NCBI GenBank assembly: GCA_037308085.1
Contig: CP147779.1
Coordinates: 832,001 to 896,000, forward strand
Direction of reading: 5' to 3'
DNA from: Promethearchaeati archaeon SRVP18_Atabeyarchaeia-1
GTDB taxonomy: Archaea; Asgardarchaeota; Atabeyarchaeia; Atabeyarchaeales; Atabeyarchaeaceae
DNA: 64,000 nt
Below, in pieces: positions 11,087 through 39,569 of the stretch. Numbering within the stretch: position 1 is the first letter of the stretch; every line of letters begins with the position of its first letter. A program made the position numbers and the translations under genes. The notes under the pieces were generated by a model that ran no database searches, had not been told where the DNA came from, and saw only the letters and a program-made list of their open reading frames with translations.

Positions 11087-12331
11087 ATGGGAATCTGTGC
11101 TGGCAAACCTTTTAATTCTACATCCCTCTTCAGTTTCCAGTGCTTCGTTGCTGGTCATGCAGGTCAGTCTGTGAGTGGAGTTGTGCCGAGATTGGGTACA
11201 GATGAAGTCGCGATAATCACGACTAAGGAAGTCTCATTAGAGGACGCTCTTAGGAAGGCAATCGATGCCATAGGTGGCGTCAAACGGTTCATCAGTAGAC
11301 ACGACAGAGTTTTCATCAAACCCAATGCAGTCGTGCCATTGTCAAGTAGCTCCGGGGTCGTGACAAATCCTGCAGTAATCAATGCCCTTGTGAGGATTGT
11401 GCTGGAAGCGGGGGCTGAAAGAGTTATTGTGGGCGATTCGCCTTTCATTCCATACAAGTCGAGAGAAGTTCTTGCAAAAACAGGAATAGAAGAAGCGGCA
11501 AGAGATGCAGGCGCCGAGATCGCCTACTTGGACGAGGAGACATACACTGAGGTCAACGCGCCCGACGCAAAGATAATGAACAAGACCCGACTTCCGAAGT
11601 CTTTCCTTAGTTGCAACGTATTCATCACAGTACCAAAAATGAAGACACACAATCAGACTGTCGTTTCGCTCTCAATCAAGAACCAGCACGGGCTTCTAAG
11701 GTCAGAGGACAAGAGAATAATGCACAGGGATGACATACACCAGAAGATCGTGGACATAACGAGCGTTGCGAAGCCAAACCTGATAGTAATTGATGGAACG
11801 ATAGCCCTTGAAGGACAGGGTCCAACTTACGGGTCACCGGTTGAAGCTAATCTGTTGGTGGCAGGCACCAACGTAGTCTCAACTGATGCTGTCGCATCTT
11901 CCCTCATGGGATTCGATCCAGAAACCATTCCATCTCTCCGACTCGCACAAATTCAAGGACTAGGTACAATGGATCTAAGCAAGATCAACATCAAGGGCGA
12001 AGACCTAAAACGCACAAGGAGACAGTTTGCGAAGCCATCTACAGAGATCGTTGGGATCTTCCCCCACGTGAACGCCTATGTCGGAGGTCCTTGCCAAGGT
12101 GGCTGCTGCGCATGGACACGTGTTGGACTTGATGGAATGAAGAAGTATGGCATATTTGACAAACTTACAGAGAATGTGAACATAATAGTGGGGGTCACGC
12201 CATCAACACCTCAGAGGCTCAGCGGAAAAACATTTGTGATCGGGGACTGCGCTGCTAAGCATAAGGACAAGGGGGTATTTATCGCGGGTTGTCCTCCATT
12301 TGATACTTGGAAGATGCGAAACTACTTCTGA
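11087..12331 (+). CDS. DUF362 Fe-S protein
   Basis: VFIKPN, VTNPAVI, PKMKTH, LSIKN, EGQGP and a C-terminal Cys-rich domain (CQGGCC...GDCA...GCPP); start uncertain. Confidence 0.88.
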   Translation: MGICAGKPFNSTSLFSFQCFVAGHAGQSVSGVVPRLGTDEVAIITTKEVSLEDALRKAIDAIGGVKRFISRHDRVFIKPNAVVPLSSSSGVVTNPAVINALVRIVLEAGAERVIVGDSPFIPYKSREVLAKTGIEEAARDAGAEIAYLDEETYTEVNAPDAKIMNKTRLPKSFLSCNVFITVPKMKTHNQTVVSLSIKNQHGLLRSEDKRIMHRDDIHQKIVDITSVAKPNLIVIDGTIALEGQGPTYGSPVEANLLVAGTNVVSTDAVASSLMGFDPETIPSLRLAQIQGLGTMDLSKINIKGEDLKRTRRQFAKPSTEIVGIFPHVNAYVGGPCQGGCCAWTRVGLDGMKKYGIFDKLTENVNIIVGVTPSTPQRLSGKTFVIGDCAAKHKDKGVFIAGCPPFDTWKMRNYF

Positions 12332-34680: not shown

Positions 34681-35595
34681 ATGAAGAATGGGTGTGACGG
34701 CAAATGTGATTCCTGCTCGAAGACTGAGGCATGCAACGATCCAAGAAGGCAGAGCTATGAAAGGGAACAGCGTCTCAAACTCAGAATGAGCAGGATTAGG
34801 CACAAGATTGCTGTAATAAGCGGCAAGGGAGGAGTCGGCAAAAGCACTGTCACTGTGAATCTCGCCGTGGCGTTCGCAATGCGTGGCCACGCCAACTCCG
34901 TGGGCATCCTTGACGCAGACATTCATGGTCCCTGTGTGCCTAATATGCTGGGTCTCAAAGGTCAGAGGCTCCTACCTGATCCTGAAGGAATGCTACCTGT
35001 GATAGGTCCTCTGGGGATCAAGGTCGTGTCCATGGCATTTCTGCTTCCAAATGATGAGGCGCCCGTGGTTTGGCGTGGTCCGCTAAAGATGGTAGCCATT
35101 GAACAGTTCCTTTCCGACACGGTGTGGGGAGAACTCGAGTTCCTATTCATAGATCTTCCGCCTGGAACTGGCGACGAACCCTTGAGCATAATGCAGTTAA
35201 TCCCAAGTATGGATGGCGTAGTAATAGTTACAATGCCTAACAAGGTTGCACAAGATGTGGTGAAGAAGGCTGTCACATTCGCCCAACATTTGGGCATTCC
35301 CATAATTGGCGTAATTGAGAATATGAGTGGCTTCGTCTGCCCGAAGTGCGGACATGAAATCGACACCTTCAAGACTGGCGGAGGGCAGAAAATGGCAAGA
35401 GACTTCTCGATTCCTTTCCTAGGGAGTATCCCAATCGACTCGGAGATTTGCCAGGACTCTGATAACGGAACTCCTTTCATAATCGAGCACGCAGACTCCG
35501 CTGCGACAGACGCGTTCAATGAAATCACTAGAGGGATTGAGCACTTCTTGGAGCACAGAAAGCGACTGGAAAGTGCACAAGCCAAGACATCCTAG
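34681..35595 (+). CDS. Mrp/NBP35 Fe-S cluster carrier ATPase
   Basis: N-terminal CDGKCDSC..C, SGKGGVGKS, DLPPGTGD and ENMS..CPKC. Confidence 0.95.
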   Translation: MKNGCDGKCDSCSKTEACNDPRRQSYEREQRLKLRMSRIRHKIAVISGKGGVGKSTVTVNLAVAFAMRGHANSVGILDADIHGPCVPNMLGLKGQRLLPDPEGMLPVIGPLGIKVVSMAFLLPNDEAPVVWRGPLKMVAIEQFLSDTVWGELEFLFIDLPPGTGDEPLSIMQLIPSMDGVVIVTMPNKVAQDVVKKAVTFAQHLGIPIIGVIENMSGFVCPKCGHEIDTFKTGGGQKMARDFSIPFLGSIPIDSEICQDSDNGTPFIIEHADSAATDAFNEITRGIEHFLEHRKRLESAQAKTS

Positions 35596-36154: not shown

Positions 36155-36529
36155 GTGGGAGCTAGGATTGTGGTTCCGACTGTAGATGAAAATGGTCTGA
36201 GCGCTCAATTAGCAGACCATTTCGGGAGGGCACCTTATTTTGCAGTGATCGAGTTGGGCGAGAGCAATGAGGTTTCAAACGTAAGAACTGTTAAGAATGT
36301 CGGCGAGCATTTTGGCGGAGGAGGACATGCTCATGAAGCGATTTTGCAGCAGAAACCAAGTGCCGTCATAGTTCGTGGGATGGGTCCAAGAGGTCTAAGC
36401 AGTTTCCAAGACGCAGGAGTGGCAGTTCTGAGGGCTAACGCGAACACGGTCAAAGAAGTGATTGACGCATACAAGGATGATGAGCTTCAGGAACTCACAG
36501 AGGGATGCCATGAGGCGCAGCACAAGTGA
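36155..36529 (+). CDS. NifB/NifX-family metal-cluster binding protein
   Basis: HFGRAPYF, GMGPR and TVKEVI. Confidence 0.88.
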   Translation: MGARIVVPTVDENGLSAQLADHFGRAPYFAVIELGESNEVSNVRTVKNVGEHFGGGGHAHEAILQQKPSAVIVRGMGPRGLSSFQDAGVAVLRANANTVKEVIDAYKDDELQELTEGCHEAQHK

Positions 36530-36839
36530 TTTAGTCTCGGTTTACCATTAGGACTGTCCTAGAAGACATACGCCAATCTCCGCGCCTTTGTTTTCAAATA
36601 GCCGGGTGACATTATGTCAAATCTGCAATCCACCAGAAGAGATTAGACGAATTGGCAAAGCGTTAGAAAATGGAGGAGAACTAGACTCAAATACAGCCAA
36701 GCGCGCGCTGTATTCCCGCCTGATTGTACTCTTGTGAGAGATGTTACTACGAAGGGGAGAGCGAGTGCAATCTCCTCGATGGACCAAAGGCTTTCGTTCT
36801 CTCAGGGTTCCATTGCCTACTCTATCGATTCTCATGTGA

Positions 36840-37096
36840 GGTTCTGTCAAGTCTTCGGTTGAAGGCTTAACTGGCTTGCATCGACTTTCAGGATTGCCTC
36901 CTGCCGCTGTGAGGGTTCCTGCACCATCGCTTCACCTGCAAGTCCCGACGGGCCGAACCGCAGCCCTGCGCTAGCATCCCGCTCTTATCTCCCCCCGCAT
37001 TCAGCTATGGAAAGCCACATGCCGCGAAAATGAGAGAATGCTTAGACGCCCAGAGTTCTTTCCACCATATAAATCAACCGCAGACTTGATAGAAGC
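36840..37096 (-). mobile_element. 257-bp MITE with IS6-like TIRs, 8-bp TSD and a putative TnpB omegaRNA cargo
   Basis: TIRs at 36840-36862 (GGTTCTGTCAAGTCTTCGGTTGA) and 37074-37096, 20/23 identical; direct repeat TCATGTGA at 36832-36839 and 37097-37104; internal TTTATA on the minus strand at about 37068-37073. Confidence 0.85.
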
Positions 37097-37220
37097 TCAT
37101 GTGACAAAGGTTTAAAATAAGGTAGGTTCAAGTGGTCTCTGACTAGAATATGGTTAATCGCTAATTATGAGATATTATGTCACTCTTGATGATAGAATCT
37201 TGAAGGAGGATAATCATCGA

Positions 37221-39569
37221 ATGGCAAATAAACCTGCGAGGCTTAAGGCCAACGAAATACAGTCTAGTTTTGGTGTCATCAAAGGCTTAGATCTGAGCAT
37301 CGGCAAAATAGTGATGGAAGAGGAAGCTGAATGGGAGCCAATGGGTCCTACTCCCTTCCCTGCGGTTGAAACCTTGCGGTCATGGGATCAGAAGTTGCTG
37401 GCGAGGTACAAGCCTTTCTACACACCGATCTGTGATATGTGTTGCCTTTGCACAATGGGCAAATGTGACCTAACAGCGGGCAAGAAAGGAGCGTGCGGTA
37501 TAAACATAGGCACGCAACAAGCGCGTATGTCCCTGATGGCGGGGCTTATGGGCTGTACGGCTCACCTTGCTCATGCCAGACACCTAACGGAGCATCTTAT
37601 CAAGAAATATGGTCCATCTACTCCCATCTCACTCGGGACTGAAATAGATGTCGAAGCTCCCAACATGAGACTGGTTCTGGGGGTAAAACCGAAGACACTT
37701 GAAGATCTAGAGGAGGGTATATCCTACTGTGAGCGCGAGGTGACTCAACTACTGGCTTCCACTCACACTGGACAAGAAGGTAGTAACCTGGACTATGAGT
37801 CGAAACTTCTCCATGCAGGCATGCTAGATATGGTTGGCATGGAAATCGCAGACATCGCTCAGATATCAGCTTATGGTTTCCCCAAGGGCGCATCTGATGC
37901 TCCTTTGGTCGACTGTGGCATGGGCACAATAGATGCAACAAAACCCATGATTCTATGTGTAGGGCACAACGTCGCATCGGGCGTCGAGATAGCAGATTAC
38001 CTGCGCGCGAATAAGTTGGATGAGAAGGTTGAAGTCGGCGCAATTTGCTGCACGGCACTTGATTTGACAAGATATTACACAAGGGCGAAAGTCGTGGGTC
38101 CCCTCTCTCAGCAATTAAGATTCATAAGGTCGGGCATTGCAGACGTAATAATGACTGATGAGCAATGTGTGAGAACTGATATCCCGGAGGAAGCGCAGAC
38201 TGTCAAGGCACCTGTTATTGCCACCAACGCAAAGATATGTTATGGTTTCCCAGATCGCACAAGCGATCCAGTTGATCAGATAGTGAAAGATGTAGTTTCA
38301 GGGGCTCAAAAAGGTGTGCTTATACTCGACCCGTACAAAGCTGCCGAAGTAGCCGTGAAGGTCGTTGTCAGCATTGCACCTAAGAGAGCCAAGTTCAAAG
38401 CTCTTCCTGATACAAGCAAAATCCCAGAGATCGCTAAGAGTTGCACAGGCTGCCAGAGCTGTCGAAGGGCATGTCCAAATGATCTACACACTGACGAGGC
38501 TGTCCAACTGGCCAAGAAAGGAGACCTTTCCAAGCTGGCTGATCTATACGAGTACTGTATTGGATGCGGAAAGTGTGAGCAAGCCTGCAACAAGGACATA
38601 CCGGTGACAAGCTTGATAACAGTTGCCGCGGAACGAAAGGTGAAAGAAGAGAGATTCAAGCTGCGAAGTGGTCGAGGTCCAGTACGCGACACGGAGATTC
38701 GCAATGTGGGCGCACCGATTGTATTGGGTGAAATACCTGGCATAGTTCTGTTCGCTGGTTGCTCTAACTACCCCAATCACTTGGAAGTCGGCGAAATGGC
38801 GGCAGAGTTCTTAAAACGGGGGTTCATAGTAACAGCTACCGGCTGCTCAGCAATGGACATATCGAGATACAAGACAGAAGAAGGCAAATCGCTCTACGAG
38901 GAATATCCAGGTGACTTCGACAGAGGTTGCTTGTCGAATGTTGGTTCATGCGTGTCTAATGCACACGTCGCTGGCGCGGCCATCAAGGTTGCAAGCATTT
39001 TTGCAAGGAGACCACTGAGAGGGAATTATGAGGAGCTAGCTGATTACGTCTTGAATCGCGTAGGGGCAGTTGGAATCGTGTGGGGAACTTACAGTCAGAA
39101 AGCCGTATCGATTGGGACAGGAGCCAATAGACTTGGCGTTCCGGTAATCCTGGGCCCTCACGGCAGCAAATACAGACGCATGATGGTTGGACGCGCTGAC
39201 AAGGATGACGACTGGTATGTCTACGATGCCAGAACAGGCGACCGAACATATGTAGGACCCGTTCCCGAGCACTTGGTGTACGCTGCTGAATCCAAAGAGG
39301 AAGCTATGATCATGGGCGTAAAACTCTGTCTAAGAGCAAACGACACATTCAAGGGACGAAGTGTCAAGTTGTCTCACTACGTCGACCTAACCAGAAAACT
39401 ACTCGGCAAAGATTATCCAGACGACATTCACAAATTCATTCGCATCGAGTCAGACATCCCACTAGTATACAAGGAAGACTTAACGAAGATACTACAAAGC
39501 AAAGGGTGGAAACCAACAACAATACCCGACCCAACACTCCTGAAAAGACTGGTAAGGACAAGCGAATGA
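37221..39569 (+). CDS. cdhA: CO dehydrogenase/acetyl-CoA synthase alpha subunit
   Basis: WEPMGPTP, CCLCTMGKC, HTGQE, GHNV, CCT, DEQC, two extra [4Fe-4S] motifs, GSCVSN and IPDPT. Confidence 0.97.
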   Translation: MANKPARLKANEIQSSFGVIKGLDLSIGKIVMEEEAEWEPMGPTPFPAVETLRSWDQKLLARYKPFYTPICDMCCLCTMGKCDLTAGKKGACGINIGTQQARMSLMAGLMGCTAHLAHARHLTEHLIKKYGPSTPISLGTEIDVEAPNMRLVLGVKPKTLEDLEEGISYCEREVTQLLASTHTGQEGSNLDYESKLLHAGMLDMVGMEIADIAQISAYGFPKGASDAPLVDCGMGTIDATKPMILCVGHNVASGVEIADYLRANKLDEKVEVGAICCTALDLTRYYTRAKVVGPLSQQLRFIRSGIADVIMTDEQCVRTDIPEEAQTVKAPVIATNAKICYGFPDRTSDPVDQIVKDVVSGAQKGVLILDPYKAAEVAVKVVVSIAPKRAKFKALPDTSKIPEIAKSCTGCQSCRRACPNDLHTDEAVQLAKKGDLSKLADLYEYCIGCGKCEQACNKDIPVTSLITVAAERKVKEERFKLRSGRGPVRDTEIRNVGAPIVLGEIPGIVLFAGCSNYPNHLEVGEMAAEFLKRGFIVTATGCSAMDISRYKTEEGKSLYEEYPGDFDRGCLSNVGSCVSNAHVAGAAIKVASIFARRPLRGNYEELADYVLNRVGAVGIVWGTYSQKAVSIGTGANRLGVPVILGPHGSKYRRMMVGRADKDDDWYVYDARTGDRTYVGPVPEHLVYAAESKEEAMIMGVKLCLRANDTFKGRSVKLSHYVDLTRKLLGKDYPDDIHKFIRIESDIPLVYKEDLTKILQSKGWKPTTIPDPTLLKRLVRTSE

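Follow-up and report, generated by a model that had tools for sequence, protein, structure and literature searches.

We show that a 257-bp element in the DNA of Promethearchaeati archaeon SRVP18_Atabeyarchaeia-1 is a miniature inverted-repeat transposable element (MITE), which inserted with an 8-bp target site duplication (TSD), descends from elements carrying the nuclease gene tnpB, shares its ends with transposons of the IS6 type, retains a covarying RNA scaffold and lies next to a one-sided flank motif that is specific to the TnpB family. The element was found in a stretch of 64,000 nucleotides (the window), which corresponds to positions 832001-896000 of a single contig of 2.81 Mb with a G+C content of 49.6%. 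With a probability that we estimate at roughly 0.6, it acts as a non-autonomous MITE with IS6-type ends that carries a functional omegaRNA, used in trans and supporting the spread of the element by homing or retention drive. Beyond this single locus, our data show that TnpB-family nucleases are also carried in archaea by transposons having terminal inverted repeats (TIRs) and TSDs.

The MITE occupies window positions 36840-37096, with a TIR of 23 bp (20/23 identical) and a copy of the TSD at both ends. Reading along the minus strand, the order is left TIR, TATA-like box, a left interior of ~90 nt, a deletion junction, the last ~132 nt of a tnpB gene and the right TIR. The features are given below in window coordinates; family A is one of three families of tnpB-only elements present in the same genome, and TAM stands for transposon-adjacent motif.

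36820-36839, minus strand: predicted guide template, UCACAUGAGAAUCGAUAGAG, from read-through past the right end as suggested by the geometry of TnpB omegaRNAs
36832-36839, no strand: right-end copy of the TSD, TCATGTGA, the predicted first 8 nt of the guide
36840-36862, minus strand: right-end TIR, GGTTCTGTCAAGTCTTCGGTTGA on the plus strand, overlapping the 3' tail as well as part of the terminal RNA hairpin (its loop and 3' strand)
36840-36975, minus strand: omegaRNA-like scaffold, ~132-136 nt, with homology to the final ~132 nt of family-A tnpB
36871-36846, minus strand: terminal hairpin of the scaffold, followed by the 3' tail AGAACC
36966-36950, minus strand: hairpin 1 of the scaffold, loop GGUUC
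36976-37064, minus strand: left-end interior, remnant of the family-A tnpB 5' region plus deletion junction, aligning locally to the family-A left end CTCGGCCGTATGGTGGCTTTATTAGCCGAAG
37016-37004, minus strand: second, degenerate TATA-like box, GGCTTTCCATAGC, within the left-end interior
37065-37073, minus strand: TATA-like box, TTTATATGG, immediately internal to the left-end TIR, a putative archaeal promoter of the scaffold RNA
37074-37096, minus strand: left-end TIR, reading GCTTCTATCAAGTCTGCGGTTGA inward, of the same type as in IS6-family transposons
37097-37104, no strand: left-end copy of the TSD, TCATGTGA, an exact 8-bp direct repeat
37105-37108, minus strand: TAM-like motif TTTG, directly 5' of the left-end copy of the TSD

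The initial annotation of this DNA, made from the letters alone, had described a 257-bp element with these TIRs, the TSD, a TATA box and nested hairpins, and all of these features are present at their positions. The minus-strand TTTATA lies at 37073-37068, and an alignment shows the TATA-like region (TTTATAT) being kept in 7/7 MITE copies. A natural empty allele, as proposed in the annotation, is found in a genome of the same family, Candidatus Atabeyarchaeum deiterrae Atabeyarchaeia-2 (CP147780.1; G002), whose orthologous intergenic region, with collinearity extending to either side, contains one TCATGTGA and then CAAAAG; read on the RNA strand, the site is CTTTTG-TCACATGA-GAATCG. As G002 holds an unoccupied site with one TCATGTGA, the element is a true insertion accompanied by an 8-bp duplication.

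A genome-wide search revealed six further full-length copies, giving seven in total, and several of the other copies are flanked by exact or 7/8 8-bp duplications. As is characteristic of MITEs, the element is short and free of gene-sized open reading frames (ORFs; the longest in the window copy has 58 aa), it has TIRs and a TSD, it occurs in multiple copies and it has a transposase-bearing partner with the same TIRs. Mean pairwise identity among the MITEs is highest in the right-end TIR (93%), followed by the scaffold (82%) and the left-end TIR (78%), and lowest in the left-end interior (66%). The first 132 nt of the window copy on the plus strand, i.e. its minus-strand 3' half, match the 3' ends of four tnpB genes, and the peptide AGLRFGPSGLAGEAMVQEP..ILKVDASQL encoded there can be aligned to the C-terminal residues AGLRFSLKGAAGEAVKGNPE..VILGVDATQL of the family-A TnpB from this genome. 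The resemblance to tnpB 3' ends that had been suspected initially is thereby one of homology, with family-A tnpB as the relative. At the other side, ~90 nt of the MITE align to the family-A left end, where a TATA-like box precedes the tnpB ATG by ~27 nt, and 4-5 nt separate the end of the deletion from the first conserved hairpin. As judged from these alignments, the MITE is an internal-deletion derivative of the 1.26-kb family-A tnpB-only elements. Other, one-off deletion derivatives of tnpB elements, all with the right-end scaffold kept, have lengths of 381 bp (763237-763617), 365 bp (2751691-2752055; CTTG before its left-end flank), 733 bp (2135115-2135847) and 966 bp (1254037-1255002).

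A search for the TIRs allowing mismatches returned transposase-bearing transposons, tnpB-only elements and the seven MITEs. At least 14 tnpB-only elements of 1.26-1.29 kb, having GGTTCTG-type TIRs and exact or 7/8 TSDs, are present in the genome, and more are found in G002 and in the related genome G001, so that full-length tnpB-bearing versions with this TIR type and 8-bp TSDs, as had been anticipated, do exist. By TIR and protein, three families can be told apart: A (GTTAAC), B (GTTACC) and C (GTCAAG). Their products match PF07282 (68.8 bits) and also solved TnpB and Cas12f chains. Family-A TnpB retains the RuvC D, E and DRD residues, and three intact family-A tnpB genes are present in the genome. 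In TnpBs of families B and C (genome 54083-55306, 655242-656465) the RuvC-III DRD of family A is replaced by DRH or NRH; their nuclease site may be rearranged or inactive, despite the many copies and a TTA flank motif. The initial annotation had viewed the element as a TnpB-omegaRNA module captured by a DDE transposon and reduced to a MITE. The reduction is supported, the capture as a one-off event at this locus is not, because a whole archaeal TnpB clade already resides inside such TIRs.

Transposases with matching TIRs, predicted as the mobilising partners, are encoded by two IS6-type transposons in this genome and by one in G002. The two in the genome score 65.4 and 63.7 bits for DDE_Tnp_IS240 (PF13610; cut-off 27 bits), and each has an 8-bp TSD of its own, with TIR identity across 24-25 nt; their TIR subtypes are GTTAAC/G and GTTACC. 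The transposon at genome 549276-555829 (L029:777-7330) spans 6.55 kb between exact TSDs (TGGAGAAC) and encodes a 383-aa transposase composed of an N-terminal SWIM zinc finger and DDE_Tnp_IS240; its cargo comprises a 995-aa Eco57I/MmeI-like type IIG restriction-modification methylase and a 219-aa ORF without a family. A pair of perfect 25-bp TIRs encloses the 4.4-kb transposon at genome 614149-618567 (L028:650-5068), whose transposase has been shortened to 251 aa, with one in-frame TGA upstream, and whose cargo includes a winged-helix protein resembling HxlR and an ORF with weak similarity to aspartyl proteases. The transposon of G002 (6.16 kb) carries a TIR of the MITE subtype (GGTTCTGTCAAGTCTTCGATTGA, GTCAAG), being the only transposase-bearing element seen with this exact subtype. 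A second, degenerate TIR-like copy lies 35-80 nt inside one end of each transposase-bearing IS6 transposon (genome 555729-555751, 618480-618502; L173 about 12260-12290) and may represent a subterminal transposase site.

When the IS6 transposons were compared by BLAST with MITEs and tnpB elements, the TIRs, 24-36 nt at each end, were all that they had in common, and no hidden scaffold was present in the transposase-bearing elements. Since the IS6 transposons share only TIRs with the scaffold-bearing elements, the scaffold is dispensable for transposase binding and mobility. Assignment of the ends to the archaeal branch of IS6 is based on G at positions 1, 2 and 7 of the right end (GGTTCTG), the left-end tips varying between GC, GG, CG and AG, and on TSDs of 8 bp, which are exact or 7/8 at most copies.

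For the RNA structure, the right halves of the seven MITEs were aligned with eight tnpB 3' ends. The consensus contains 25 pairs, nine of them with compensatory changes on both sides; 98.7% of the cells are paired compared to 87.5% in shuffles and 24-43% with partners slid, and the covariation score was matched by 0/500 shuffles. The scaffold combines a hairpin whose GGUUC loop is invariant with a long, interrupted stem, a terminal hairpin and an AGAACC tail that stays free, and the GGGCUG/CGGCCC, CUUGCA/UGCAAG and CAGGA/UCCUG hairpins recognised initially all belong to it. Restricting the analysis to the seven non-coding MITE copies resulted in 37 predicted pairs, 98.8% of the cells paired and five double-change pairs; one pair alternates between C-G, U-A, G-C and A-U, and many pairs are G-U, which can form on the RNA strand only. 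A covariance model (R1) built from the alignment, as had been suggested, scores 137 bits at the window MITE. Its hits in the genome number 25, each located at the right end of a TIR-bounded element, and the model further matches the 3' ends of ~60 related archaeal tnpB genes, nearly all ending with CAGAACC. Taken together, the scaffold overlaps the 3' end of tnpB, abuts the right end and has a covariation-backed structure, as expected for an omegaRNA. The GAACC tail and the GGUUC loop could form a pseudoknot. Both strands are invariant in the family and matching changes occur only in the distant loci L101 and L157, two anecdotal compensations, so that we put the pseudoknot forward as a proposal.

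The flanks show a motif on one side of the insertions. In 27 elements oriented by tnpB or scaffold, we inspected the 4 nt directly 5' of the left-end TSD copy and found TTR in 18/27 against a background of 2.8% (P about 5e-22), with C or T at position -4 in 25/27, giving YTTR. The mirror motif after the right-end TSD copy occurs in 2/27, and the flank beyond YTTR shows only a weak A at -8. Five of the seven MITEs have the motif (P about 4e-7), the window copy with TTTG among them. This TTTG, which the initial annotation had seen in front of the reconstructed target, is present in the natural empty site of G002 and is part of the family-wide YTTR. In a wider archaeal collection, TTA or TTG is found at 12/18 loci with good TSDs. 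The last base differs between the TnpB/scaffold families, the ratio of TTG to TTA being 10:1 for the A-type and 0:7 for the B-type (P = 2.5e-4). Elements with swapped TIRs separate the two possible determinants: a family-A tnpB of G001 with GTTACC TIRs (L039, L061) has TTG, a B-like tnpB with GTCAAG TIRs (element 655232) has TTA, and the MITEs, which combine GTCAAG TIRs with an A-type scaffold, have TTG. The choice of G or A in YTTR is linked to the TnpB/scaffold family and not to the TIR subtype. If the guide starts at the first base outside the right end, the position of YTTR is the one required for a TAM. The motif fits a TAM, with the TSD acting as the first 8 nt of the guide target, in which case an empty allele would read TAM, duplication sequence and right flank.

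The architecture extends into related archaea. G001 and G002 contain family-A and family-B tnpB elements with exact TSDs, and a degenerate copy of the same architecture is found in a genome of another Asgard family (G139). Among 73 related tnpB loci of a species-representative collection, from Nitrososphaeria, Bathyarchaeia, Thermoproteota and Asgard, 33 have GGTTCTG-type TIRs, 18 of those with a TSD of at least 6/8. Such TIRs with exact 8-bp TSDs are common on tnpB elements of Nitrososphaeria (Nitrosopumilus, Nitrosotenuis, Nitrososphaera), Bathyarchaeia and Thermoproteota metagenome-assembled genomes, at loci including L114, L163, L138, L140, L141 and L160, and in one Nitrososphaera tnpB element the TIR is identical to that of the MITE over 22 nt.

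According to the model that we favour, an IS6-type transposase would move the MITE in trans via its 23-bp TIRs, and the left-end promoter would transcribe the scaffold and read through the right end, generating an omegaRNA with a guide composed of the 8-bp duplication and the next ~8-12 nt of the flank. An intact family-A TnpB made elsewhere in the genome would load this RNA, and the resulting complex would recognise the unoccupied allele by YTTR as TAM followed by the duplication sequence and the right flank. Cutting of the empty allele would then allow recombination to copy the element in, resulting in homing or retention drive. The occupied site would be spared because only 8 nt after the TAM match the guide. 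The right-end TIR would be used twice, as DNA in the form of the transposase site and as RNA in the form of the last hairpin and probably of the pseudoknot strand (GAACC with loop GGUUC). Transcription of the MITE, the use of its RNA in trans, cleavage and mobilisation are well-motivated inferences from the arrangement of the parts. Movement of IS6/IS26 elements probably takes place by copy-in, with no excision step (PMC6807381); since copy-in lacks excision, the benefit would have to come from homing into empty alleles and not from repair of excision sites. Tentatively, we extend this model to the whole archaeal TnpB clade (Asgard, Nitrososphaeria, Bathyarchaeia), which might have co-evolved with IS6-type transposons: one 23-bp sequence would serve as TIR and as omegaRNA hairpin and pseudoknot strand, the TAM would lie just outside the TSD, which would itself become the guide seed, and homing would drive fixation of tnpB elements and of RNA-only MITEs parasitising both transposase and nuclease.

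Several observations weigh against a functional omegaRNA. The compensatory changes among the MITEs come from seven related copies only and could in part have arisen by gene conversion with tnpB copies. The single-sequence fold energy of the window copy is no better than that of shuffles (z = -0.16), which is why we take the support for the structure from covariation and not from energy, and an Rfam scan of the region gave no match above noise. The window copy forms a singleton subfamily with 69-75% identity to the other MITE copies, and its second TATA-like box is interrupted (CTTTCCATAGC compared to CTTTATAGC in the other copies). Identity between the MITE scaffold and the scaffolds of intact family-A elements is only ~75%, so that recognition of the MITE RNA by family-A TnpB is an assumption. 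Moreover, the restorative role shown for IS605 TnpB would be unneeded here, and the homing benefit remains a prediction. A rival reading is an ordinary MITE that keeps its ends for transposition and carries the tnpB 3' fragment as a dead passenger without RNA function. MITEs by definition arise as deletion derivatives, and the other one-off derivatives of 381, 365, 733 and 966 bp, the fold energy and the disrupted TATA-like box are all in line with a relic. We nevertheless regard it as unlikely, as transposase-bearing transposons share only 24-36 nt with the MITE, leaving ~110 nt of scaffold unneeded for mobility, and as this scaffold is conserved above the rest of the MITE (82% vs 66%). A dead passenger would also leave unexplained that pairs are held by double changes and strand-specific G-U among non-coding copies, that the deletion stops 4-5 nt before hairpin 1 and that the A-type TTG motif is found at MITE insertions.

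Another objection concerns YTTR, which might reflect a landing preference of the IS6-type transposase, unrelated to TnpB and inherited by MITE and tnpB elements alike. Of the six IS6 transposons whose TSDs were verified, two show TTA or TTG on one side of the TSD (P about 0.04 by chance), and in both the base agrees with the tnpB/MITE family of the same TIR subtype, suggesting that the transposase may contribute to the motif. On the other hand, 4/6 have the motif on neither side, and these six transposase-bearing, tnpB-less transposons, with the motif on 2/12 sides, stay below the left sides of the tnpB elements (P = 0.006), their number being too small to decide whether transposase or TnpB sets the motif. 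With near-symmetric TIRs, a DDE synaptic complex should prefer a palindrome, whereas the mirror motif occurs in only 2/27; furthermore, the motif sits exactly at the required TAM place, directly 5' of the first guide-matching base, and its G or A follows the nuclease/scaffold family in TIR-swapped elements. We judge an origin of YTTR from the transposase alone to be rather unlikely, though less so than the relic, and the two explanations of the motif are compatible because in IS605 target site and TAM coincide (PMC10055086). Very improbable, finally, is that the MITE represents an IS200/IS605-type palindrome-associated transposable element (PATE), moved by Y1 TnpA and with subterminal hairpins mistaken for inverted repeats. 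The genome does contain three Y1 TnpA genes (478195-478557, 1573364-1573714, 1955413-1955769), and Y1 or serine TnpA are the usual partners of TnpB, but none of the Y1 genes adjoins any of the elements. Most copies have exact 8-bp TSDs with one copy in the empty site, the inverted repeats extend to the very tips without a left-end hairpin, and DDE transposons are bounded by the same ends. The TSDs and TIRs led us to reject Y1 TnpA as the mobiliser; a PATE of IS200/IS605 would have subterminal hairpins at both ends, no TSD and an insertion point 3' of a fixed tetra- or pentanucleotide that touches the left end.

Concerning the surroundings, the MITE is inserted ~70 bp upstream of a gene for an 800-aa Prismane/CO-dehydrogenase-family protein with a 4Fe-4S dicluster domain (window 37167-39569, plus strand), directly beside the TATA-like TTTAAAATAAGG of this gene. 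Upstream of the MITE are genes for a Nitro_FeMo-Co-family protein (36155-36529, plus strand) and an Mrp/NUBPL-type ATPase (34681-35595, plus strand).

[quoted passage not shown] The predicted TAMs are YTTG for family A and YTTA for families B and C, and the predicted rule is that the 8-bp duplication starts the guide. The small archaeal TnpBs (~390 aa) with a scaffold of ~130 nt are candidate editors, and MITEs in Asgard genomes may be guide-RNA genes instead of inert debris.

As a comparison with known systems, prokaryotic TnpBs associated with DDE transposases, including solo tnpB genes sharing inverted terminal repeats with transposase-bearing elements, were described by Altae-Tran et al. 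in 2023 as branches DDE-1 to DDE-6 (PMC10691335). The elements reported here resemble those in that TnpB lies inside TIR transposons with the tnpB 3' end near the transposon end and in that solo tnpB elements and transposase-bearing ones have common ends. They differ in the transposase, IS6 in our case compared to IS630, ISL2 and IS1031 as the partners named in the available parts of that paper and of a 2026 review (PMC13565253), according to which the rarity of DDE partners in prokaryotes needs explaining. The MITE form and the TAM-TSD-guide geometry are absent from the available portion of PMC10691335. A full-text literature search returned no paper linking TnpB to IS6-type ends, a link that may be tabulated in the supplement of PMC10691335, and no description of a scaffold-only MITE with TIRs and TSD or of a TAM placed beyond the TSD so that the TSD seeds the guide; TnpB, IS6 and MITEs go unmentioned in the paper on Atabeyarchaeia mobile elements. 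DDE-linked TnpBs and omegaRNA-only PATEs are already published.

Also among the closest known systems are the PATEs of IS605, which according to Meers et al. 2023 "often encode omegaRNAs" used in trans by TnpB made elsewhere (PMC10055086). Like these, the MITE is a protein-less miniature having both ends and a guide-RNA scaffold and depending on TnpB and transposase from elsewhere. PATEs have hairpin ends and no TSD, are moved by Y1 TnpA on single-stranded DNA and have the TAM touching the left end, whereas the MITE has TIR ends, an 8-bp TSD, a DDE partner and a TAM-like motif separated from the left end by the TSD. With the archaeal branch of IS6/IS26 (Harmer and Hall 2019, PMC6807381) the elements share G at TIR positions 1, 2 and 7, the 8-bp TSD and a DDE_Tnp_IS240 transposase. 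Classic IS6/IS26 are insertion sequences of ~0.8-1.5 kb containing the transposase only (PMC6807381); the IS6-type transposons found here reach 4.4-6.6 kb and contain cargo, and what most copies of these ends enclose is tnpB or the RNA scaffold alone. Fanzor in eukaryotic DDE transposons is similar in placing a TnpB-family nuclease on a TIR/TSD transposon, with the TSD being part of the recognition logic (PMC3627910, PMC13565253). For Fanzor the 5' TSD is read within the TAM and the scaffold contains the 3' TSD (PMC13565253), while in the archaeal MITE the motif is external to the TSD, which would provide the first 8 nt of the guide.

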